64,000 bases of DNA. Origin: a virus. The notes below the pieces were generated by a model. It saw only the letters and a program-made list of their open reading frames with translations. It had not been told where the DNA came from and did not search any database. Position numbers and translations under genes: made by a program. The stretch is from the IMG/VR virus record IMGVR_UViG_3300017963_000003, positions 128,261-192,260 of that record. The stretch is one strand, 5' to 3'. Positions 34,070 to 57,707 of this stretch are shown here, piece after piece (position 1 is the first letter of the stretch; each line of letters starts with the position of its first letter).

Positions 34070-34450
34070 CTAGGAGTTGCTCACTACGAGCTTGAGCGGG
34101 GGCTTCTTGTTCTTCTGGACAGCTTCCTCCAGTGTCATCATGTTCGGCACACGCTGCGGCATGATGGCGGGCATCCTGGCGCTCCACCAGAAGTAGGTAC
34201 CTCTGAGATTCCGCAACTTGCAGAACGCCCCATCCCGGACCTGCACGACCAGCTCGCCGCCCTGGTGGAACACGAAGACCTCTCCGAGCACCCGGCCCTG
34301 CTCGTTCCCAACCATGTACTTCCCCGGCTTAGCGGGCATCTCCCGCTGCCAATGACCGTTGAGAAAGCACGCCCAGGCGTGGGGGATCGGGCTGTCCTTC
34401 TCGACGCCGTCCACGAGCATCTTGACTTCGAATTTACGGTTCTCGCTCAT
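34070..34450 (-). CDS. Hypothetical protein
   Basis: GGAGGGC RBS; TTGACT/TATATA promoter at ~34491-34519. Confidence 0.7.
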   Translation of the reverse strand: MSENRKFEVKMLVDGVEKDSPIPHAWACFLNGHWQREMPAKPGKYMVGNEQGRVLGEVFVFHQGGELVVQVRDGAFCKLRNLRGTYFWWSARMPAIMPQRVPNMMTLEEAVQKNKKPPLKLVVSNS

Positions 34451-34508
34451 CTCGCCCTCCGTTTCTGCCAGGTGTCGCCTGACTCTCTAATATATACCAC
34501 AGGTGGCT

Positions 34509-34907
34509 TCAGAAGTCAATCCTCTTCGAGCAAATCGCCTTGACGTACCCACGGAGGTCCTCCGTGAACCAGAAACTCAGAGGACGACACGTCGGAAAGG
34601 GGGCCTCGAAGGCGTTGCAGCCATGGAGGAGCCAGCTGTCACGCAAGATGGCGTCGTCACCCACCGAGAAGGGTACGAGAGGTCGATGAGACCTCTCAGG
34701 TATCATCACCGACAGGGCATCCGGGCACACCTCGTTGGCGAGGTGCCTCAACGTCAAAGACTCCTCGGGGGAGGCCTCTCCGATAGCGACCACCACTCCG
34801 TCCCCCTCCCAGTGATTGTACCAAGCCCGAATGGTCATCAAAGATAGACGTACCTTGGATTCGAGAGGCATCGCCTGCCTCTCGATGAGCCGGTCCAGCG
34901 AAGGCAT
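34509..34907 (-). pseudogene. Shortened, degenerate PAPS-reductase-family protein
   Basis: Keeps PLESKVRLS..IRAWYNHW and GCNAF...RPLSFW..EDL..Y; lacks the SGGKDS loop and most of the middle. Confidence 0.5.
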
Positions 34908-35451: not shown

Positions 35452-35617
35452 CGTCGATCTCCTTCAGAAGCAGCCAGTCGCAGAAGGACTGAAAGTCTTC
35501 ATCGTCTCGTTGACGTTGTTCAGCCGTCATCCCTCGACGCTCGCGCTCGAAAACGTTCACGAGAGTCGAAGGGTGGTTGTAGTCCAGGTCCTCGGTATTA
35601 ACGTCGTCCGGTCTCAT
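35438..35617 (-). CDS. 59-aa hypothetical protein
   Basis: Hand-translated MRPDDVNTEDLDYNHPST...KEIDDEAY; coupled to the upstream stop. Confidence 0.5.
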   Translation of the reverse strand: MRPDDVNTEDLDYNHPSTLVNVFERERRGMTAEQRQRDDEDFQSFCDWLLLKEIDDEAY

Positions 35618-36168
35618 CCTACCTCTTCTCGTTGAGGATCATAAAACTCCAAGAACTCGACAGGTATCTTGCCGTCGAAGAGCAGCAAGCAGTCCCCGAA
35701 TGTCGTGTCGGAAAAAGAGAAGCCCTCTACCACTCCCGACATCGCTTCGAGGTCCACCACGATGGCAACCTCTCCGTAAGAACTACTCATCTCCGGATCG
35801 AGACCCACGCAGGCCATATGGATGTTGGGGTGGGCTTCCTTGAGGAGTTCTTCCACCTCTTCAAACCACGGATGACCGTCAGGAAGATTCCGCTTCCACT
35901 CCGAAGGGTGACCGTACTTCTCGTCCAGGATGTCCTGGTACTCGTACGGAAGCTCGCAGTACATGTACCCGGCGTGGTGTTCTCCAGGGGTCCAGTTCTG
36001 TGTGCCCAGACCCTCACGCATGATCTTCTCGGCGTTCTCTCTCGAAGTCCAGTGCCACCCCTTCCCGTGACCACCGATGCCGCCAGCCTCGTAGAACGGA
36101 CATTCCCGCCGCTCGACCTCTTGAGCTATGCGACGAATACCGGAGTCTGAAATGCCTTGGAGTTTCAT
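35614..36168 (-). CDS. Leader-tagged ADP-ribosyltransferase-like protein
   Basis: Leader MKLQGISDSGIRRIAQ; WHWTSRENAEKIMREGL...IPVEFL (ART/Tpt1/DUF952-like pattern). Confidence 0.65.
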   Translation of the reverse strand: MKLQGISDSGIRRIAQEVERRECPFYEAGGIGGHGKGWHWTSRENAEKIMREGLGTQNWTPGEHHAGYMYCELPYEYQDILDEKYGHPSEWKRNLPDGHPWFEEVEELLKEAHPNIHMACVGLDPEMSSSYGEVAIVVDLEAMSGVVEGFSFSDTTFGDCLLLFDGKIPVEFLEFYDPQREEVG

Positions 36169-36575
36169 TCTTCCACCATTGCAGGAGACCACCAGCGCTC
36201 GATGTCCTTCACCTCTTCTACGTCCGTCACCACGTACCCGTCTTCATCCATCTCAGGATAAGCTTCGAATTGAGAAGCGGTAGGATCAAAGATACTCCCG
36301 TTCACATCTAACCAAGTGTGCCCCTCTGGCTCGGAATCGTCCCCGTAAAGATCATAAAACCCATGATGCACTTCTACGTCGAAACCAGCCGAGTCCAACA
36401 ACACAGCCCATTTAGCAGAAGCCTCATGGCATCCGTATATGACTCCTACAACACCCATATTCTCCCTGACGAAGGTCTTGAGATTGTCACCCGCCAAAGG
36501 AGAAAACCAGTATCCATCAAAAGCCGTTTGAGCAATCCTCCTCAAGCCGGAATCTGGGATGCCTTGGAGTTTCAT
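36165..36575 (-). CDS. Leader-tagged transglutaminase/papain-fold protein
   Basis: Leader MKLQGIPDSGLRRIAQ; GCHEAS...GHTWLDVNGSIFDPTASQF (Cys-His-Asp). Confidence 0.65.
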   Translation of the reverse strand: MKLQGIPDSGLRRIAQTAFDGYWFSPLAGDNLKTFVRENMGVVGVIYGCHEASAKWAVLLDSAGFDVEVHHGFYDLYGDDSEPEGHTWLDVNGSIFDPTASQFEAYPEMDEDGYVVTDVEEVKDIERWWSPAMVEE

Positions 36576-37393
36576 CAAGGGGTACTCCAGCGCTCCACTA
36601 CATCAATGAAGTTGTCGTGAGCGTCTTCCTCGGTGTGTGCGTGCCACGTCTCCGTCTTGCCATCAGCCCACACCACCTGGACCGTCTTTCCGAAGCGGTA
36701 CACTGTGCACGACTGGGTCTCGGGGTAAGGAGAATCCATCCAAGGGATGTGCTCCTCCTCGTCGGGCTCCTGCGTATCCACCAGAGCCTGCGCAGACTTC
36801 TTGTCCAGCCACACCGAGTCGATCAGGGCATAGATCAAGTCCTCCTGCTCCGGGGTGAATACCCACCGGACACCCATGTTCTCTTCGGCCCACCCACGAG
36901 GAGTATTCCCGCGTTCCTCGGACGTCGCCATCCAGTCAGCAACCATCTCAGCAATGTCGAGAACTCCCATCCCGCTACCATCGATAGGTCGCTCCGCAGG
37001 GCCGTCCCGATCCTCTTCGTTGAGGACGTCCAGCGTTTCGAGCTGATGGTACTCCGGATGGTGGGGGTTGTTCAGAATGTGATGCTGAGTGGCCGCCTTG
37101 ATCGCGTCGTCCATCCCCTCTGGGAGCTGGCACTCAACGCCGTCGTCCTGGCACTTGTAGCGCCACGTCAACCAGACGTACGGGTCCAGCTCGGGTTCGT
37201 CAAACTTCCCCGCATCGTGCTCTTCTCCGCGCTCGATCAACCCATCCAACCCATCCCACGCGTCCTCCAGGAGGCGACAGTACTTCTGAACCAGGGCTAT
37301 GTGCCGTTCAGTGCGCTCGACGAAGTGACGCTTCATCTCGTCGTCGAGCATCTCCGCAATACGCCTCAGCGCCGCCCCTGTGATGCCTCTCAT
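36575..37393 (-). CDS. Leader-tagged HD-domain protein (DUF5662-like)
   Basis: Leader MRGITGAALRRIAE; RHI..V, HDAGKF, HHILNNPHHPEY, EMVADW. Confidence 0.7.
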   Translation of the reverse strand: MRGITGAALRRIAEMLDDEMKRHFVERTERHIALVQKYCRLLEDAWDGLDGLIERGEEHDAGKFDEPELDPYVWLTWRYKCQDDGVECQLPEGMDDAIKAATQHHILNNPHHPEYHQLETLDVLNEEDRDGPAERPIDGSGMGVLDIAEMVADWMATSEERGNTPRGWAEENMGVRWVFTPEQEDLIYALIDSVWLDKKSAQALVDTQEPDEEEHIPWMDSPYPETQSCTVYRFGKTVQVVWADGKTETWHAHTEEDAHDNFIDVVERWSTP

Positions 37394-37395
37394 CC

Positions 37396-37926
37396 TCACC
37401 TCTGGGACTCTTGCTTCCCGGCCCACTCGCCGGTCACAGCGTACGCGGCCTCTTCGAGGTGGTTCCCATGGTAGGCCTCCTCCCCGCGCATCCACGCCTG
37501 GAAGGAAGCGCTGGCATAGGAGAGCGCACCCGCCGCCACCCACGAGATGCCCCCACAAAGGGCTCCCGGTACCGGAGAGCCTGCGCTCCACGAGAGCAAG
37601 AACATCGTCAATCCGTACAGGAACCCAAGCAGCATCGCGGCCTCGTACTGCTCACTGTGGAAGTGCTCGTGGAACTCCACTGGAGTGTCGATGCCCTCGC
37701 CACCGGCTGCCGTGGGGAAGAACATGCCACCATGACCGAGACAGTTGCCGCCCATCTTGAACTTCCGGTCAGGCCACGAGCCTTCCTTGAACTCGAACCA
37801 AAGACCTTCCAGCCAGTGAAGCTTGTGACCCCAGAGCGCCCATGCGGTCAGGATGACGACCCACGAGATGATGTCCCACGGCCACGTCCACAGGTAGGTC
37901 AGGTAGTAGCGTGCTGGACGTTTCAT
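37396..37926 (-). CDS. Membrane protein (no leader)
   Basis: Three hydrophobic helices; HEHFHSEQ motif. Confidence 0.7.
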   Translation of the reverse strand: MKRPARYYLTYLWTWPWDIISWVVILTAWALWGHKLHWLEGLWFEFKEGSWPDRKFKMGGNCLGHGGMFFPTAAGGEGIDTPVEFHEHFHSEQYEAAMLLGFLYGLTMFLLSWSAGSPVPGALCGGISWVAAGALSYASASFQAWMRGEEAYHGNHLEEAAYAVTGEWAGKQESQR

Positions 37927-39209
37927 AGCGCCTCCTCGTACTCGCGCATCAACTGGTACGCTTCTTCAAAGCGCCCAACCCAAGGATTGCGTTCAATCAC
38001 CACAGGTACCTCACCAAGTCCGGCACGCTGAGCAGCGAACCAGCGGTGGTGCCCATCCTCGATGAGGTAGAGACCGTCCCCGACAGGAGTTACCGTCAAC
38101 GGCCCCATGTACCGGGGCCAACCCTCGGCCTTGTAGAACTGGTCTTCGATGTCATTTATCGAGGAGGGGTCTTTCTCTTCTAGAGGTTCCGTAGGGTACA
38201 ACGAGTCCACCGGAACCCACGTTGCCGATGACAGGTCTTCAGGTAGCGCCTCGGCAATGCGACGAACTCCGTTGCCCAGCTGAAGCTCAGGCTCCTCTTT
38301 CTCCTCCAGAGGCACGTAGTAAATGTCTTTATAGTCCTCCGGATTAGGCCATGTAGGCTCCACTACTCCTTGCTCCGCGACTCCCCGAGGAAGTTCTATT
38401 TCGAGAATCACAGGGTCTTCCAAAGATCCGTCCCAGCCCCCTTTGCGGGCGTACTCACGCGCAGACACCAGCGTACCAAACAGGTACACCCCGTACCCCC
38501 AATCCCCCCACCCACCCCAAAACCCTTCACGCTCGATACTGTCAGCAGACTCCCTATCGGTGACGTGGTAATAGGTCTCCGTACGCTGAGCCTCAGCAAC
38601 ACGACGCTCCTCCAAAGGATGGTCGGGCATCAGGTAGTCGTTCTGCCAATACAACACCTCCGGCTCGCCGTAGTGCTCTGAGAACTCGTTCTCAATTATC
38701 TCGCCGGTCTCTTCTCGGTCGAACGCCTTCTCCGGATCAATGGTATCCCAGTCTTCGAGAGGAACCCACCTCTCGCCGTTCCAGACGAACACTTCCTCGG
38801 GGTCGACATCATCGACGATCCAGGCATCCGCGAAAGCGTCTCGTGTACCGATCTCGTCGCGCTTCAAACCCTCGAAGACGTTGGTACGCACCGCGAGCAC
38901 CACAGGGAAGGTGCCGGTGAAGAACTCCTGCTCGTCACCGACCAACTCATTCTGCCCCCAGTCCTCCGACCGGCTGTACCAGAATAGAAGACCGTCCCAA
39001 GTCGTTGTAAAGACGCCCTGCTTGCTGTGCTCCGAGTAACCAGCGCCCTGCCCTACCCCACCTCCCACGTCTCCGAGAAGACCCTCTTCAGAGATACCAT
39101 CGAGATTCCGATAGTAGGTCACGTGGTACACAACATCCGGAACGTCCCCAAAGAACCCCTCCTGCGCGATCCTCCTCAATCCGGAATCTGGGATACCTCT
39201 CAACCTCAT
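37923..39209 (-). CDS. Leader-tagged three-domain protein: ART-like, ART-like, ParB/sulfiredoxin-like
   Basis: Leader MRLRGIPDSGLRRIAQ; YHVTYYRNLDGISEEGL; RRVAE linker; YHVTDRESADSIEREGF; RRIAE linker; LIEDGHHRWFAA. Confidence 0.7.
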   Translation of the reverse strand: MRLRGIPDSGLRRIAQEGFFGDVPDVVYHVTYYRNLDGISEEGLLGDVGGGVGQGAGYSEHSKQGVFTTTWDGLLFWYSRSEDWGQNELVGDEQEFFTGTFPVVLAVRTNVFEGLKRDEIGTRDAFADAWIVDDVDPEEVFVWNGERWVPLEDWDTIDPEKAFDREETGEIIENEFSEHYGEPEVLYWQNDYLMPDHPLEERRVAEAQRTETYYHVTDRESADSIEREGFWGGWGDWGYGVYLFGTLVSAREYARKGGWDGSLEDPVILEIELPRGVAEQGVVEPTWPNPEDYKDIYYVPLEEKEEPELQLGNGVRRIAEALPEDLSSATWVPVDSLYPTEPLEEKDPSSINDIEDQFYKAEGWPRYMGPLTVTPVGDGLYLIEDGHHRWFAAQRAGLGEVPVVIERNPWVGRFEEAYQLMREYEEAL

Positions 39210-39889
39210 CTCGGCCCCTCGTAAGGTCCCCATCTGGAGAGGGCCGCCTCAAACATCTCAGGCGTGACGCCGTTGACCCCGACGATATACTCAGGGGGAA
39301 CGAAGCCCGTGAACACGACACCTCCTGGATGGAGGTCCCCTCCAAGAGGGACGCTCCCGTCCAGAGGAACATCAACAGTCACCCAAGGGAAATGCTTGTT
39401 ATGCCGCTCAGATTCACTCGAAGGGTGGTTGACGCCTACTCCGAAAACAGACGTCGGTGACTCACTGCTTCTCCCAGCGCCCTCTGGTTGCGACACGAGG
39501 CCTTGAGAAAGGATAGACTGCATGAGGACCAGGCCTATACCGCCTTGCATGCCCGCAGAGTGAGAGAAACGGAAAGTCCCTTCTAGGGGTGAAGGAAGGT
39601 ACCGTTCGTCCTGCACAGCACTCCAGGCCTCCATTGCAATAGGTCTGATGAGGTCCCACTCATCCGTGTATTGTAGCTCTCTGAACTCCTCGGCAGACAT
39701 CCCCAGAAGATCGCCCATGATCGACGCAAACGCGTCCGCGTCGTACATGAGGTTGCCCACATCGGACCAACGCAACGCGAAATAGGCCGCCATCTCCTCC
39801 ACATCAGGGAGTGCGATGTCGCGCCCATCCCCTTCTGCGGACTGTGCGATCCTTCTCAATCCGGAATCTGGGATGCCTTGGAGTTTCAT
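39206..39889 (-). CDS. Leader-tagged protein with a possibly degenerate ART-like C-domain
   Basis: Leader MKLQGIPDSGLRRIAQ; FSHS...SILSQGL...GFVPPEYI. Confidence 0.65.
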   Translation of the reverse strand: MKLQGIPDSGLRRIAQSAEGDGRDIALPDVEEMAAYFALRWSDVGNLMYDADAFASIMGDLLGMSAEEFRELQYTDEWDLIRPIAMEAWSAVQDERYLPSPLEGTFRFSHSAGMQGGIGLVLMQSILSQGLVSQPEGAGRSSESPTSVFGVGVNHPSSESERHNKHFPWVTVDVPLDGSVPLGGDLHPGGVVFTGFVPPEYIVGVNGVTPEMFEAALSRWGPYEGPR

Positions 39890-40278
39890 CAGTACAGCTT
39901 CATCCCCAAGCTTTTAGCCTTCTCCGCACGCTCAGGTCTCGTAGATCCAGCATCCAACGAGATGTCTCCATCTCCTGTGATGCGATAACGCGCGTACCCT
40001 CCGTCACCGTAGAGAACCCATACGTAGCTATCACGCATAAGTTCCCAATAGTCCTCTTCATCCCGGTAAGGCAACGACTCCTCCAAAGCCTCTTCCAGCC
40101 TCTGGAGGATTCCGCCCCAGGAGTACTCGGAATCTTCCGCAACACTGCGTCGTGCCCACGACTCACCCTCTATCTGAGTGAGTACCTCAAGGACACCGTC
40201 AGGGTCCTCCAAGACGTTCAGACCTCCCGACTGCGCGATCCTCCTCAACCCGGAATCTGGGATGCCTTGGAGTTTCAT
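39889..40278 (-). CDS. Leader-tagged small acidic protein
   Basis: Leader MKLQGIPDSGLRRIAQ. Confidence 0.75.
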   Translation of the reverse strand: MKLQGIPDSGLRRIAQSGGLNVLEDPDGVLEVLTQIEGESWARRSVAEDSEYSWGGILQRLEEALEESLPYRDEEDYWELMRDSYVWVLYGDGGYARYRITGDGDISLDAGSTRPERAEKAKSLGMKLY

Positions 40279-41633
40279 TACAGATCACGCCCCCAGTCGC
40301 CGCCCCCGAAACTGCTCAAGTACCCCATGACCTCCCGGTACGAGGGGTCGTCGTGAGCCTCTCCCCACGTACGGTCCGCGAAGTCCTGGCCAAGCTCACG
40401 AGTCAGATCGTACAGTTCGCTGGAGGCTGCGAACTCCACCTCGTTCCACGAGGAGCCGAACTCGTAGTGTCCAGATGCACCAGCATCCTCCTCGAACGTT
40501 AGCTCCCGGTCCCATTCTGTGAGCAACGCCTCGGCAGCGGCACGATGCTCCTCGAAGGAACTTACGGAGCGAACCTGGTCCCGGAGACGAAGAAGGTTCC
40601 GAGAGGTCTGCCGCTGGAACTCATGGACTTCGTCCATCGTGTACGTGCGCTGGGCGATGCGCCGCATCATCGCGACCACCCTGCCCCCACTATCACCAGA
40701 CTCTCGATACGGAGGGCTCGGAGGCTCGGGAAGTTCACCCTGGAGATGCGGAGCGGCTTCAAGCAGACGCTTCAGGGTAGTGCCGTGGTACTCGATGCTG
40801 CGTGGTTGGTACTGGGTCTCCGAGAACAAGGAGGTCTGATCGCTCTCAGGCTCTCCCCAAACGAGCTGCTCCTCGAAATCAAAGTAGCCCCCGTAGACGT
40901 CATCGATCCAGGGGATGTTGAACCCCGGCCAGCGAGATTCCAACTCGCCCTCCGCGTTATCGTAGTCCTCCATCTCGGTAGCAACCGGAGTGATGAACCA
41001 GACCGCGCGAACACGGTCAGCCCCTACGTCTTCGGTGTACCGGTACTGGTCCGTAGCCAACATCAACAGCTCAGAGGAGAAGTCACCTGTCTGCATGTAC
41101 TTCCGGAACGCATCCGGGAACCCCGACTCCTCTACAAGACCAGACAGCGGGTTACCGAAGTGGTAGAACGTCCCCTCCGCGATCATACTCAAAGGATCGG
41201 TCGAAGAGGCATCAGGCTCTGTATCCGACTCCAAGATGTCGAACGCGGCATCGCGAATCTCCTCGTCAGAGGAGTCGACTGTCAAGTCGTGCCACCCTGC
41301 CATCTCCTGGAGATGAAGCTCCAAGACTTCCCAAACCATCTCCTCGGCGTCGTAATCCGTCTGCGGCTCGTGACCGCTCATGTCCAGGGCGACCACCACG
41401 GGATAGTCGGTTACGTAGTGAACATCGTTCTCGTCCGAATCAGTGTAGGACTGCGCGACACGACCCACCGCGTACTGAGCAGCGATCTTGAGATCACCCG
41501 TAGTGTGGAAACCCGGATGCGTGGTTACCCCTTTATACTTCTCTCCCACTGAGTAAGGCGGTTCGGCCAGGAAGTCGCCTACCTTGCGAGAGATCCTGTG
41601 AAGGGCCTGATCTGTGATGCCAGGAAGCCGCAT
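40278..41633 (-). CDS. Leader-tagged multidomain protein, ART-like N-domain
   Basis: Leader MRLPGITDQALHRISR; GFHTTGDLKIAAQYA...YPVVVALD; internal MMRRIAQ before the last domain. Confidence 0.7.
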   Translation of the reverse strand: MRLPGITDQALHRISRKVGDFLAEPPYSVGEKYKGVTTHPGFHTTGDLKIAAQYAVGRVAQSYTDSDENDVHYVTDYPVVVALDMSGHEPQTDYDAEEMVWEVLELHLQEMAGWHDLTVDSSDEEIRDAAFDILESDTEPDASSTDPLSMIAEGTFYHFGNPLSGLVEESGFPDAFRKYMQTGDFSSELLMLATDQYRYTEDVGADRVRAVWFITPVATEMEDYDNAEGELESRWPGFNIPWIDDVYGGYFDFEEQLVWGEPESDQTSLFSETQYQPRSIEYHGTTLKRLLEAAPHLQGELPEPPSPPYRESGDSGGRVVAMMRRIAQRTYTMDEVHEFQRQTSRNLLRLRDQVRSVSSFEEHRAAAEALLTEWDRELTFEEDAGASGHYEFGSSWNEVEFAASSELYDLTRELGQDFADRTWGEAHDDPSYREVMGYLSSFGGGDWGRDL

Positions 41634-41636
41634 GTA

Positions 41637-41930
41637 CTACTCAAACAAGTCAGGGTTCGCACCCCACATCGAATCCAGCAGGGTGTTGAGTTCCTGAGAC
41701 AAGGTCTCCACGTTCTGTACGCATTCGACAAAGCTCTCTGCGTGGTCTCTGCCGAAGCGGCCCTCGTCCATGGCTTGGCTGAACTCCTGAAGGGAGCCCG
41801 CAGCGAACGTAGCGTTCGAGAGCAGTCGAGCCAGGATGTCCCTATCGCCGTCAGAGATCTCCGCAACTACCTGACGCTCTCCGTTCCGCGCAATCCGGCG
41901 TATCCCGTCATCAGTGATTCCACGCTTCAT
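41637..41930 (-). CDS. Leader-tagged small helical protein
   Basis: Leader MKRGITDDGIRRIAR. Confidence 0.7.
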   Translation of the reverse strand: MKRGITDDGIRRIARNGERQVVAEISDGDRDILARLLSNATFAAGSLQEFSQAMDEGRFGRDHAESFVECVQNVETLSQELNTLLDSMWGANPDLFE

Positions 41931-42148
41931 CGAGTCCTCCTAACGGTAACCTTCTTGGGCAGAGGACCACACTGAAGAGTGGCTTCAGTATACCCCAACC
42001 CCTTGTCTTCGATCTTGAGAACCTCGCAACCAGGGTGCTTGGCGCGCAGGTACCGCATCAACTCACGGTCCGCACAACCACCTTGAATTGCTAGAAAAAC
42101 AGCTACAACGGCAGAAAGAATGAGTCCGACGTAGCGAGTAGTCATCAT
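41927..42148 (-). CDS. Small exported or lipoprotein-like protein
   Basis: Signal-like N-terminus ending in GGC; own TTGACA-17-TATATA promoter at ~42168-42196. Confidence 0.6.
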   Translation of the reverse strand: MMTTRYVGLILSAVVAVFLAIQGGCADRELMRYLRAKHPGCEVLKIEDKGLGYTEATLQCGPLPKKVTVRRTR

Positions 42149-42199
42149 GCCCTCCAAGTACCCTCCCTATATAGCACAGCCTTAGAGGGTTGTCAACAA

Positions 42200-43696
42200 C
42201 TACTCCCTCTTCGAGCTGGCCTTGAGATCGTCCCAACGCACCTTGATGAGACGGCCGTCATCGAGGCGCATGAAGTAGTAGTCACCCTGCTTGTCGAACT
42301 GCGACTCCGCGTACCCCCTCGTCCCCTTCGGATAGGTGGTGGTCTGGCCCCAGCCGGTAGTGACGGTCACGTCGTTCTTGAGCTGAACACGCTCGTTGGA
42401 GTTGAACGCGTACTGCTCGTCCTCGATGAGTCCAGGATCGAGGTCATGCCGGATGTTACCCAACTCGTCCTCGCGCTCCTCAGCGGTTTCGATCTCCTCG
42501 AAGGCGAGCTTGATCTGATCGGCACGTGAACCACGCGGAGGAACGCGTACGTTCACTGAGTCCTCGATGAGGCCAACCCCGTCACTGGGAATGCTGTGCT
42601 GGGGAGGGTTACCCATCGGGTCATGCTCGTCGGAAGGGGGTCCGATAGGGTCGGCCTCGGAGAGTTTGTTCGGGAAATCGTCCGAATTGCCCAAGGGCGC
42701 TCGGTCGATCTTCATCTCGCCCTGCTCGACAGGACCCATGCCAGGGGTACGGATCTGCGGACGACCGGGCTCAGTACGAGCCGGCATCGCATCAGCGACA
42801 CGGAAGGGAGTGGAGAGGTCCACCCCCTCCATCAGGACCACACCGGCCGTCAAGGGCGTCTGAAGATCCACACCCTCCATGAGTTCTGCAAGGTCGTCAG
42901 CCATGTTGGGGGCCTTCTCGACCGGGCTCATGGGGGTCTCGTGGACATTCTGCTGGAGAGCCGACAGCAGGAGGTCTTCCATCTGACGCTCGATCTCCTG
43001 ACGCTTCTTCCAGGTACCGGCGCACTCCACGTTGTTCATGCGGTCACGAACATCGAGAAGCTCACGCACCTTGGCAATCGCCGCGCCTTCGAGCGGGTCT
43101 CCGGCGAAGCAATCGAGGAACTCAGAGATCGAGTCCACTCCCCAACACGAGGTCTTGCGGCTACCCTGGACGACGATGACGATCTGGTCTGCCGGAGCGG
43201 CCTTCATGCGCTCCAGGTTGAGCATGTTCAGCTCGTGACAGATCTTCGACTCCTCGTCCCATTGCGCGCTCAACTCCTTGTCGTACTCGTCACTCTCCAG
43301 GTCGAGGGCGAAGAGCTGCTCCAGGAGAGCCACGGCCTCCTGCTCGAAGGGCGTACCCTTGAGCTTGTAGAACCAGTCCTCCCAATACATCGACTCGCTG
43401 TATGCGCGCTTCTTCGACATCGCCGTAGCCTCCAGGGCGCCAGCCCCCTCTCCGAGCGTCCCCCGCTGGGATTCGAAGAGGTCGACCGCTGCCTCGCTCA
43501 CGTAGGTCAGGATTTCGTTCGAGCCGTCGAGGAACTCGTTCTCGCCTTCAAAATCGTCCAGGTTCACTGGGATCTCTACCTGCCAAGGGAGACCCGAACT
43601 CTCCGTCACGCTGACCAGGTACGTACCTTCGGTGTCACTGGGTTCTACCAGAACATCGAAGCCTCGGATGATTGTGGTGAAGCTGTCCTGCGACAT
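42200..43696 (-). CDS. Large modular acidic protein with a C-terminal SH3-like domain
   Basis: ORF track; basic [RK]xA linkers. Confidence 0.8.
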   Translation of the reverse strand: MSQDSFTTIIRGFDVLVEPSDTEGTYLVSVTESSGLPWQVEIPVNLDDFEGENEFLDGSNEILTYVSEAAVDLFESQRGTLGEGAGALEATAMSKKRAYSESMYWEDWFYKLKGTPFEQEAVALLEQLFALDLESDEYDKELSAQWDEESKICHELNMLNLERMKAAPADQIVIVVQGSRKTSCWGVDSISEFLDCFAGDPLEGAAIAKVRELLDVRDRMNNVECAGTWKKRQEIERQMEDLLLSALQQNVHETPMSPVEKAPNMADDLAELMEGVDLQTPLTAGVVLMEGVDLSTPFRVADAMPARTEPGRPQIRTPGMGPVEQGEMKIDRAPLGNSDDFPNKLSEADPIGPPSDEHDPMGNPPQHSIPSDGVGLIEDSVNVRVPPRGSRADQIKLAFEEIETAEEREDELGNIRHDLDPGLIEDEQYAFNSNERVQLKNDVTVTTGWGQTTTYPKGTRGYAESQFDKQGDYYFMRLDDGRLIKVRWDDLKASSKRE

Positions 43697-55951: not shown

Positions 55952-56398
55952 TCAGCCCACCTGCACCTCGAAGTACGTCTTCAAGAAGTTGTCGAACCTC
56001 AACAGTTGATCGGGGATGTAGAGCTTACCCCCTTCACGGAACTCAACCATGTCCACGTAGGTGTGAAGCTCACGCTTGAACTTGTCCAAACGAACCGACG
56101 GAGCCTTGGGGTCGAAAATACGCTTCCCTTTCTTGACGTCCTCCTCGGTAACCGGCGCCGCCTCCATCGAAGGAAGCTCCTTCATCTCCCCCGGAACCGG
56201 CACCCCCAGCACCTCGTCGTAGAGATGGGTGCAGCCATCATGGTCGTGCATCTCTACCCGCTTCATCATCGACTGGAACGTCTCCAAGGTCATCCTGTCC
56301 TCGGGTTCCCCAATCGGAGGAGTGTCCCCCGGACACCTCCCCGTAGCCTTGATGTGATCGACGGCCCACTCAGCCCACGTCCGCAGTTTCTCCCTCAT
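55952..56398 (-). CDS. Hypothetical protein
   Basis: ORF track. Confidence 0.65.
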   Translation of the reverse strand: MREKLRTWAEWAVDHIKATGRCPGDTPPIGEPEDRMTLETFQSMMKRVEMHDHDGCTHLYDEVLGVPVPGEMKELPSMEAAPVTEEDVKKGKRIFDPKAPSVRLDKFKRELHTYVDMVEFREGGKLYIPDQLLRFDNFLKTYFEVQVG

Positions 56399-57707
56399 TG
56401 ACCCACCTCACGTTGTCGAGCATGCTCTCGAACATCTCATCCGAGCCGGGCTCGACGTTGAACATCTCCTGATACTTGCGCAGCGCCAACTGCTGCATGA
56501 ACTCCCGGTACACCGCCCCCTTGAAGCACTCAACGAAGTCCGCCTCTTTCTTGACTCCGACGGCCTCCATGGCGGCCTTCTTGGACCCCAGCTGCTGGAC
56601 CTGAGCATCCGCCATGCGCGACATCTGGATGTGCAACCACTCCTGGGGAAGCGGGGGTATCGTCGAATGGCGCATGATCTGATCGATCACCTGGTTGGCC
56701 ACGGTACTCCGAAGGGCGCCGTCAACCTGCTTGGCGTAGTCCTCCTCGAAACGCTCACGGAACGCCTCCAGATCGTCGAACCCGCCATCCTTAGCCAGCT
56801 CGTCGTCAACCCCCGGAGTACTGATCTGCTGCAAGCCGTGAACCTTGATCGTAGCCGAGACAGGCTTTCCGGCGTGCTCGGGATCATGCTTACTCGCAGG
56901 GAACTCGCACTCGAACAGATCACCTACCTTGTGACCCATGAGGTGCCCACGCAACTCCTCGATGGGTATCCCGGCGATCTCGACCCACTGGCGCTGGAAG
57001 GTCCCGTTGAGGTACACCTCCCCGTCTACGCTAGCCGTGATGTCCAGGCACGCGCTGCTCTCTGCCCCGATCACCCCATCGGGATCATCCGTCAGCGTAC
57101 GGAATTGACGCTGAAGCTCCTTGAGTCGTTGATCGTACATCTCGCTCTTCGGAACGATCTGCGGCTTCTTGATCGCCCAGTTGATCTCGCCGCTCATCTT
57201 GAGGCTCGGCGTGAAGTAGACCACCGTTACCAGCTGAGGTGACTTATCGGGCTGGAAATCGAACAGCTCCATCCCGTCGAAGAACAGGATGTCGTCCTCG
57301 ATCTTCTCGCTCACGAGCTTCGTCAGTAGATCACCGTAGACGCGCTTCAGGGGGTAGCGCTGCTCCACCATCTTCCGGGCACCGAGTATCTTACCGCCCT
57401 TGGCCTTCTTCCCCTTCACCTTGAGGGCGCCGACGATGCGATCCTCGTTCTCGCGCCAGTACTCGTCCATCTGCTTGCGCAGATCATCGTACCTGAACCA
57501 GATGACCACGCGGTACGGAGGAGCCAGGGGTTCGATCACGGGCTCCCTGAGGGGGATCTCCCCCAGCTCCCCCTTCTCCATCTGATCCTGGAGCTTTCGG
57601 TCGATGTCGGCGGTATCCACGAGTACGGCGTCCTCGGGGATGCTGGACTCAGGTTGATCGACTGAGGTGTCTTCGGACGGTGAGTTCTGTTCGTGGTTCT
57701 CCGACAT
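56370..57707 (-). CDS. tig: Trigger-factor homolog
   Basis: FKBP-like ITASVDG...LMGHKVGD...HAGKPVSATIKVHGL and C-domain PGVDDELAKDGGFDDLEAFRERF. Confidence 0.8.
   Translation of the reverse strand: MSENHEQNSPSEDTSVDQPESSIPEDAVLVDTADIDRKLQDQMEKGELGEIPLREPVIEPLAPPYRVVIWFRYDDLRKQMDEYWRENEDRIVGALKVKGKKAKGGKILGARKMVEQRYPLKRVYGDLLTKLVSEKIEDDILFFDGMELFDFQPDKSPQLVTVVYFTPSLKMSGEINWAIKKPQIVPKSEMYDQRLKELQRQFRTLTDDPDGVIGAESSACLDITASVDGEVYLNGTFQRQWVEIAGIPIEELRGHLMGHKVGDLFECEFPASKHDPEHAGKPVSATIKVHGLQQISTPGVDDELAKDGGFDDLEAFRERFEEDYAKQVDGALRSTVANQVIDQIMRHSTIPPLPQEWLHIQMSRMADAQVQQLGSKKAAMEAVGVKKEADFVECFKGAVYREFMQQLALRKYQEMFNVEPGSDEMFESMLDNVRWVNEGETADVG

Follow-up and report, generated by a model that had tools for sequence, protein, structure and literature searches.

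The internal proteins of bacteriophage T4 share only a capsid-targeting sequence (CTS) of 10–19 residues, which targets the scaffold core and is removed by the protease gp21 (PMC3012670, PMC9026906), and are themselves basic (PMC9026906). Short propeptides are also known from giant phages, where cleavage by the SPN3US protease gp245 falls behind A-x-E (AQE is one such site) and takes off propeptides of 20 and 24 residues (PMC10052503), while encapsulins are defined by the HK97 fold together with a dedicated cargo-loading mechanism (PMC8346489), and ADP-ribosyltransferase (ART) and ParB are among the typical domains of effectors for which injection has been predicted (PMC5512222). Here we describe a leader peptide of about 20 residues that begins eight of nine adjacent genes in a window of 64,000 nucleotides (positions 128,261 to 192,260 of the IMG/VR virus record IMGVR_UViG_3300017963_000003), which makes up the last third of a 192,260-bp tailed-phage contig of 58.6% GC. 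The leader is a portable, strictly N-terminal and clade-wide peptide under strong selection at the peptide level, and we consider below whether it might load proteins into the phage head in the manner of the T4 sequence.

The nine genes are tightly packed on the minus strand at 35614–41930 of the window, overlapping at ATGA or GTGA or else abutting, and the eight leaders conform to M-(K/R)-x(0-2)-G-I-(P/S/T)-(D/G)-x-(G/A)-(L/I)-(R/H)-R-I-(A/S) with starts at 36168, 36575, 37393, 39209, 39889, 40278, 41633 and 41930. All eight had been given at these positions in an original prediction made from the DNA letters, and only the third needs amending, as the leader itself is present but a start at GTG 37399 (giving MRMRGITG...) is more likely than one at ATG 37393 because the spacing then agrees with that of the family and the start codon shares the GTGA of the upstream stop. 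We ran an N-terminally anchored hidden Markov model (HMM) of the leader on 27,265 candidate open reading frame (ORF) starts from this genome and its relatives, and this separated true leaders at 19–43 bits from a few diverged copies at 8–11 bits and the rest at 5 bits or less. The window genes scored 35–43 bits, and the third 32.2 bits from GTG 37399 or 27.6 bits from ATG 37393, and nowhere else in the 192,260-bp genome was the full motif found except as two diverged copies in the head module. By the same model, the giant proteins encoded upstream contain no copy above noise.

The original prediction had also proposed that such a model be used to scan the genome and metagenomes, and in an exhaustive profile search of 1.84 billion protein cluster representatives we recovered 86 clusters (E ≤ 1e-3), of which 84 match from residue 1. 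The two exceptions are a two-leader protein and a false positive, P0003 (798 amino acids (aa) with 11 leader-like stretches), which we rejected as an unrelated repeat protein. The family profile reads M-(K/R)-(L/K)-x-G-I-(S/T/P)-D-x-G-φ-(R/K)-R-I-A-(Q/K/R)-(A/V/S)-(V/I/M)-x-(G/S/A)-Q-(E/D), and among 85 leaders the first G (84/85), the I (85/85) and the R (85/85) are nearly invariant, with the D (72), the second G (81) and the A (81) highly conserved; at the first position of the R-R pair, 33 have R and 21 have K, with S, Q, E or N in the rest. The core originally described stands but its length does not, since the end lies some six residues further on, at the weak (G/S/A)-Q-(E/D). Neither Pfam nor PHROGs holds a model for the leader, and it was absent from the deposited phages searched, in line with the earlier remark that it was not recognised as a described motif.

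That selection acts on the peptide follows from an alignment of ten leader copies at the DNA level, where the same residues are encoded by different codons and the flanking DNA on both sides is unrelated. The array genes are tandem and translationally coupled, as might be expected if the shared start were no functional tag and only the trace of recent duplication or of a repeat in the DNA, such as a cassette for recombination or translation initiation, but we consider this extremely unlikely given the synonymous differences and unrelated flanks, the retention of the same peptide in contigs of 34%, 51% and 59% GC (34–60% overall), and its presence on 85 different 50%-identity clusters. A leader of the type that precedes ribosomally synthesised and post-translationally modified peptides was also ruled out because the cargos are proteins of 60–450 aa with folded domains.

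Past the leader, the eight window proteins show no similarity to one another (blastp, E < 1e-3), as had been claimed. The leader lies outside any common fold, because the match to DUF5662 in the third protein begins only at residue 22, and among 120 metagenomic DUF5662 homologues a leader precedes the conserved domain start in just six, which are the six closest; in homologues from cultured phages the alignment begins only at residue 11–28. In a low-confidence AF2 model, likewise, the leader forms a detached helix, after which comes a disordered linker. To judge from these alignments the leader is a bolt-on, modular tag and not part of a folded domain shared by all of the proteins, which the original prediction had entertained as the contrary outcome.

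Relatives carrying leader genes were found by a degenerate DNA pattern combined with a capsid-anchored search of IMG/VR. In the whole records of five large uncultured relatives, leader genes occur near the capsid gene as well as at remote loci, and one contig (L015) has at least 10 leader genes, with one to four in other relatives. The same peptide is found in tandem genes in contigs of 34% and 51% GC; in the first of these (L064; 647–1441 and 8443–10210) a sigma-70-like gene precedes three tandem leader genes by a few kb, and at this GC content the tag is seen against a host background quite unlike that of the window. No DNA relatives, near or distant, were found among deposited phages. Among deposited genomes the uncultured 'Virus Rctr197k' (KX853510) comes nearest, with a capsid protein 60% identical, and the leader is absent from its whole record, as it is from the cultured distant relatives Yoloswag, BcepSauron, PaBG, phiRSL1 and Afa-NA1, the same query being positive in five of five uncultured relatives. 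A tblastn search with two leader variants against 50,697 deposited phage records, T4-like phages included, returned nothing relevant, and the degenerate DNA pattern, run against one genome per prokaryotic species, gave single chance-level matches and two borderline N-terminal candidates among the matches listed. A 238-aa ORF starting MRGIHDDGLRRIARD... on the contig JAILFM010000173.1 of a Clostridiales metagenome-assembled genome (L142, at ~1869, minus strand) is a borderline leader at 19 bits, and might be from a binned phage or prophage.

Most of the cargos that the leader precedes are small (median 117 aa), acidic and without a known domain, and 95% of them have an isoelectric point (pI) below 4.6 compared with ~21% of the genome background. 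Cargos that can be named across the family include a ParB-like nuclease in four clusters, a GNAT protein and others, and the solid assignments are the ParB-like nuclease and DUF5662. The original prediction of a transferable tag on unrelated proteins is thus upheld, while its description of these as a set of enzymes is weak, as it fits the ParB-like nuclease and DUF5662 but not most of the cargos. No matches to PHROG head or ejection families were found among them, and a reading of some as ADP-ribosyltransferases is prompted by weak ESM-Atlas leads that were not confirmed by folding; the N-domain of the 451-aa window protein gave a poor fold (pLDDT 53) and no ART match (Z below 5).

Two of the window genes each combine two leader modules. 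Leader gene 4 (37923–39209, minus strand; leader 39162–39209) encodes a 428-aa protein in which a first module of the leader plus ~300 aa with weak ART-type leads, for which no relatives turned up, is followed by an internal leader remnant, LQLGNGVRRIAE (residues 309–320; 38250–38285, minus strand), directly before a ParB-like nuclease domain (residues ~317–428) that has stand-alone homologues with a full leader (P0048, P0076 and P0073). Leader gene 7 (40278–41633, minus strand) encodes the 451-aa protein, with an internal MMRRIAQ at residues 322–328 (40650–40670, minus strand). Its N-domain (residues 17–313) is kept in relatives as a separate leader gene, and the orthologues in three relatives all end in LPxPPxPY where the window protein continues into a second module, which itself has a stand-alone leader homologue (P0069, 41% identity over 103 aa). 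Both internal copies, RRIAE at residues 316–320 of the 428-aa protein and MMRRIAQ in the 451-aa protein, had been overlooked in the original prediction. The N-terminal half of the leader has decayed in each, and on these comparisons both are scars of fusions between leader genes; multi-leader proteins are also found in the wider family (P0002, P0009, P0013 and P0019).

The likeliest of the readings, at about even odds, is that the leader is a head-loading propeptide which resembles the T4 CTS in function but is unrelated to it in sequence. One short N-terminal peptide on many unrelated proteins is the pattern of the T4 internal proteins, and the strict N-terminality together with the decay of internal copies fits a signal or propeptide, as a generic docking motif would not need to be so placed. 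Leader genes also recur in the late structural context of relatives: in 10 of the 24 capsid loci with at least 4 kb of downstream sequence they follow the capsid gene, on its own strand, at a distance of 1.8–5.8 kb, in L028 and L042 two of the window cargos have orthologues with a decayed leader placed among virion structural genes, and the two diverged leader genes of this genome, which are outside the window and were not noticed earlier, occupy the same slot beside the capsid operon. A propeptide would also fit the position-specific (S/A/G)-Q-E that follows the core, given that the SPN3US protease cuts AQE: this ending occurs within nine residues after the core in 21% of leaders and in 0–2% of control windows, with a peak at +6. 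The looser (S/A/G)-x-E occurs after the core in 38% compared with ~19% of controls, again peaking at +6. The ParB-like nuclease and GNAT cargos resemble predicted injected effectors, which would suit packaging, and the head maturation protease of this genome, described below, is nearest to T4 gp21 when modelled. The case for the capsid loading and cleavage of the tagged proteins is nevertheless circumstantial.

The head module consists, in order, of a portal gene, a gene for the head maturation protease, genes for a 655-aa scaffold-like protein and a 259-aa protein, and the major head protein gene. The protease (L004 15882–16835) matches phrog_18299 ('head maturation protease', E 1.4e-32) and has no Pfam or PDB match by sequence, and in a VIA-align search its model was closest to T4 gp21 (5jbl_A, Z 7.5, root-mean-square deviation 3.6 over 132 aligned residues) followed by the herpesvirus assemblins (the varicella-zoster virus and human cytomegalovirus proteases). 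From this model we conclude with moderate confidence that the phage encodes a gp21-type prohead protease. The scaffold-like protein (L004 13904–15871, outside the window) is acidic and carries leader-like RR-φ-small motifs, both internally (EALRRLAN) and at a conserved C-terminus, where the tail is kept as ...A(L/I)(G/S)GG(S/T)xLGRR(L/I/M)xRL and here reads ...GGSTLLGRRLGRL. These motifs lead us to propose that the leader could imitate a capsid-binding tail of the scaffold. The major head protein (L004 11815–13077, also outside the window) was identified as a match to phrog_2522 with a basic N-terminal extension of ~90 residues. This extension is very basic and poorly conserved, and ends in a clade-wide block, R-(M/I)-F-(D/N)-x-x-G-x-(I/V/L)-N-A, which may be the maturation site or the N-arm. 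It was rejected as a leader-like cleavage motif at the capsid propeptide junction, as the conserved RRMFD block only loosely resembles the leader. The basic capsid arms could hold acidic cargos electrostatically. The portal gene (L004 18395–19972; G000:C1 66395–67972) has a LAGLIDADG homing-endonuclease and intein insertion, with Pfam matches to LAGLIDADG_3 and Intein_splicing, and matches the PHROG portal family only over residues 298–459.

For the head-loading propeptide we infer a mechanism of four steps. Proteins would be made with an N-terminal peptide of 15–21 residues that opens with a short hydrophobic stretch (M-K-L-x-G-I), passes through a turn (S/T/P-D-x-G) and closes with an amphipathic helix (φ-x-R-I-A-Q-A-V). 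This peptide would dock at a conserved site in the assembling prohead, either on the core of the scaffold or on the inward-facing side of the major capsid protein, perhaps by mimicking the RR-φ-small tail of the scaffold itself. The gp21-like protease would then trim the leader, often at the closing (G/S/A)-Q-E, and the acidic cargo would be freed within the head, to exit with the DNA at the next infection and work as an early effector; such effectors would include the ParB-like nuclease, DUF5662, possible ADP-ribosyltransferases and small acidic proteins that may be inhibitors of defence. A tag of this kind would be portable, with new cargos recruited simply by gaining it.

The resemblance to T4 would lie in the short N-terminal peptide on unrelated proteins, which in T4 are non-essential and fast-evolving (PMC3012670, PMC9026906), in the gp21-type prohead protease, in a gene set that varies between related phages, and in cargos that plausibly act in host takeover or counter-defence. 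Unlike the T4 sequence, the leader showed no relevant similarity to T4-like or other deposited phages (by tblastn), it is longer and far more conserved, with six nearly invariant positions, and it heads bigger arrays, of 8 to 10 or more genes. The propeptides of SPN3US gp45 and gp225 and those of phiKZ-like phages are cut off at A-x-E by the same structural class of protease and have recorded lengths of 20–24 residues, and many leaders here end in (G/S/A)-Q-E near residue 20–22, but no common sequence beyond the cleavage motif has been reported for them (PMC10052503), whereas here one conserved peptide is reused on ~85 families and the Glu-type site is found in a minority. By analogy with encapsulins, a short peptide would direct cargos of diverse kinds into an HK97-fold shell. 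The Gly-rich, L-R-R character of the leader presumably resembles that of encapsulin cargo-loading peptides, which we take as a lead only. Encapsulin peptides are mostly C-terminal, and the encapsulin compartment is without DNA. A further likeness is to the polyvalent or MuF-type packaged effectors (Iyer et al. 2017), with which the present cargos share a ParB-like DNase and possibly an ART (PMC5512222) as well as the idea that effectors travel with the DNA. Small multi-module fusions of this sort would be the 428-aa and 451-aa proteins, the former joining its ART-lead region to the ParB-like domain while other cargos have one or no known module; in contrast to the polyvalent proteins, the modules here are mostly separate genes with their own tag and not parts of one giant polypeptide, and no MuF or MPTase domain was found.

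It should be noted that a number of observations weigh against head loading. The cargos are strongly acidic where the T4 internal proteins are basic, and a Glu-type site follows the core directly in only 21–38% of leaders. The match of the protease to gp21 is middling (the model has a mean pLDDT of 59) and Foldseek turned up nothing clear. The window array, 107 kb away from the head module, is apparently part of one long minus-strand unit with RecA and SbcCD upstream, so its expression may not be late; a promoter and terminator scan of 33–48.5 kb gave fewer sites than shuffled sequences, and hence no transcription boundaries could be placed. The arrays in L062 and L064 adjoin PAPS-reductase and sigma-factor genes and not head genes, and the slot near the capsid gene may be a mere hot spot for accessory genes, given the weakly holin-like and membrane protein genes found there. 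Finally, no cultured carrier of the leader was found in the searches of deposited phages.

Several of these points would suit a leader that serves as a docking peptide for a hub other than the capsid, such as a phage chaperone or a host machine, with no packaging involved. We regard this as somewhat unlikely, although the extreme conservation across genomes of 34–60% GC implies one conserved partner of whatever kind, the arrays in this genome and at L062 and L064 are among non-structural genes, and small size and acidity are typical traits of the inhibitors that serve in host takeover or against defence from inside the infected cell. A candidate partner is also encoded on the same strand 15 kb upstream of the array, where a 445-aa protein (56370–57707, minus strand) has a trigger-factor C-terminal domain (PF05698, E 3.9e-8) and is a possible chaperone of nascent N-termini and thus an alternative receptor for the leader. 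However, a docking motif need not be at residue 1, where nearly all of the profile matches begin, nor would internal copies be expected to decay, and docking of this kind leaves unexplained both the recurrent slot just downstream of the capsid gene or in the structural module and the position-specific (S/A/G)-Q-E with which the leader closes. This same ending might instead point to a tag for processing or turnover only, a pro-sequence or degron that keeps potentially toxic effectors inactive or short-lived until it is taken off by a protease of the phage or the host, and that has no role in sorting, as nuclease-like and possibly ART-like cargos might need, and the detached helix and disordered linker of the low-confidence model would be in keeping with this. 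We consider it improbable, since cleavage sites and degrons can usually do with far fewer than fifteen nearly invariant residues, most of the cargos are tiny and have no enzymatic domain, and the Glu-type site is confined to a minority; it also largely merges with the head-loading propeptide because the short peptide of T4 has both functions.

The twin arginine of the leader, and the company that some leader genes keep, raise the further question of export or membrane targeting linked to lysis or membrane genes. Downstream of the capsid operon, at L004 8053–10274, the diverged leader genes are interleaved with genes for small membrane proteins (a weakly holin-like protein of 106 aa (phrog_1299, E 0.0018), a protein of 116 aa with transmembrane and coiled-coil segments, and one of 150 aa with a signal peptide), which may form a lysis cassette within the structural region, and the window array includes a membrane protein with HExxH and is preceded by a lipoprotein-like gene. 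An export signal is nonetheless very unlikely, as many leaders lack the R-R pair, the cargos that can be named are enzymes acting on DNA or nucleotides in the cytoplasm, and the hydrophobic h-region of 12–20 residues expected after the basic n-region of Tat or Sec signals is absent past the arginines, where the core is followed by A/V/S, V/I/M, K/G/E, G/S/A, Q and E/D and then by acidic and polar sequence.

The remaining genes of the array are all on the minus strand. Leader gene 1 (35614–36168) encodes 184 aa, scores 43.1 bits and has the leader MKLQGISDSGIRRIAQ (codons 1–16; 36121–36168) followed by E, which completes an A-Q-E tripeptide; like those of genes 5, 6 and 8, its cargo matched no known family. 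Leader gene 2 (36165–36575; 136 aa, leader 36528–36575, 40.2 bits) has a cargo with sub-threshold matches only (DUF7421 and a transglutaminase-like core). Leader gene 3 (36575–37399) encodes 274 aa from GTG 37399 or 272 aa from ATG 37393, and its cargo is the DUF5662 domain noted earlier (PF18907, E 9.9e-26), with a C-terminal extension of ~75 aa beyond most homologues (~195 aa). DUF5662 is common in phage contigs and no function has been assigned to the family. Leader gene 5 (39206–39889; 227 aa, 41.8 bits) has its leader at 39842–39889 followed by S-A-E, leader gene 6 (39889–40278; 129 aa, 40.1 bits) at 40231–40278, and leader gene 8 (41637–41930; 97 aa, 36.5 bits) at 41886–41930 in the short-spacing variant MKRGITDDGIRRIAR. 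The one gene without a leader (37396–37926) encodes a membrane protein, as originally described, of 176 aa and no family match, with a strong hydrophobic segment at residues 96–114 and more Trp-rich hydrophobic stretches. Its HExxH (residues 86–90) sits directly ahead of this hydrophobic or transmembrane segment, and the protein could be metalloprotease-like or of an immunity type.

Upstream, at 41927–43696 on the minus strand, the array is flanked by a gene for a 76-aa protein (41927–42157) and one for a 498-aa acidic protein (42200–43696); the former has an N-terminal hydrophobic segment ending ...AIQGGC and the look of a lipoprotein, and its gene adjoins that of the acidic protein in two relatives (G003 and G004) as well. 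The downstream flank (34070–34907, minus strand) has two genes at 34509–34907 and 34070–34450, which are also kept in relatives. Because homologues of the two flanks adjoin directly in G004 and G003, where three leader genes lie nearby in a different arrangement, the window array is by this comparison a lineage-specific expansion between conserved flanks, which bears out the swappable gene set of the original prediction. Leader arrays thus appear to grow, shrink and fuse at plastic loci.

The leader family is new, while the strategy is in kind already known from T4. We suggest, with rather less than even confidence, that a clade of large uncultured phages loads an exchangeable arsenal of dozens of mostly small and acidic protein families, among them candidate defence inhibitors or DNA mimics, into the capsid for co-injection by means of a peptide that mimics the tail of the scaffold; should this be so, then it might, and here too we are tentative, be a second and independently evolved capsid-targeting system that is more elaborate than that of T4. 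If correct, the T4 strategy of a CTS plus swappable internal proteins would have arisen more than once, and a short and well-defined peptide would be available that could be tested as a packaging tag for foreign proteins in HK97-fold shells. The tag would also mark, by sequence alone, ~85 protein families that are injected with the DNA, most of them without a function so far, and these would be prime candidates for new anti-defence or host-takeover factors. Were the tag to dock elsewhere, it would still mark out a large effector family with a single conserved partner in common.

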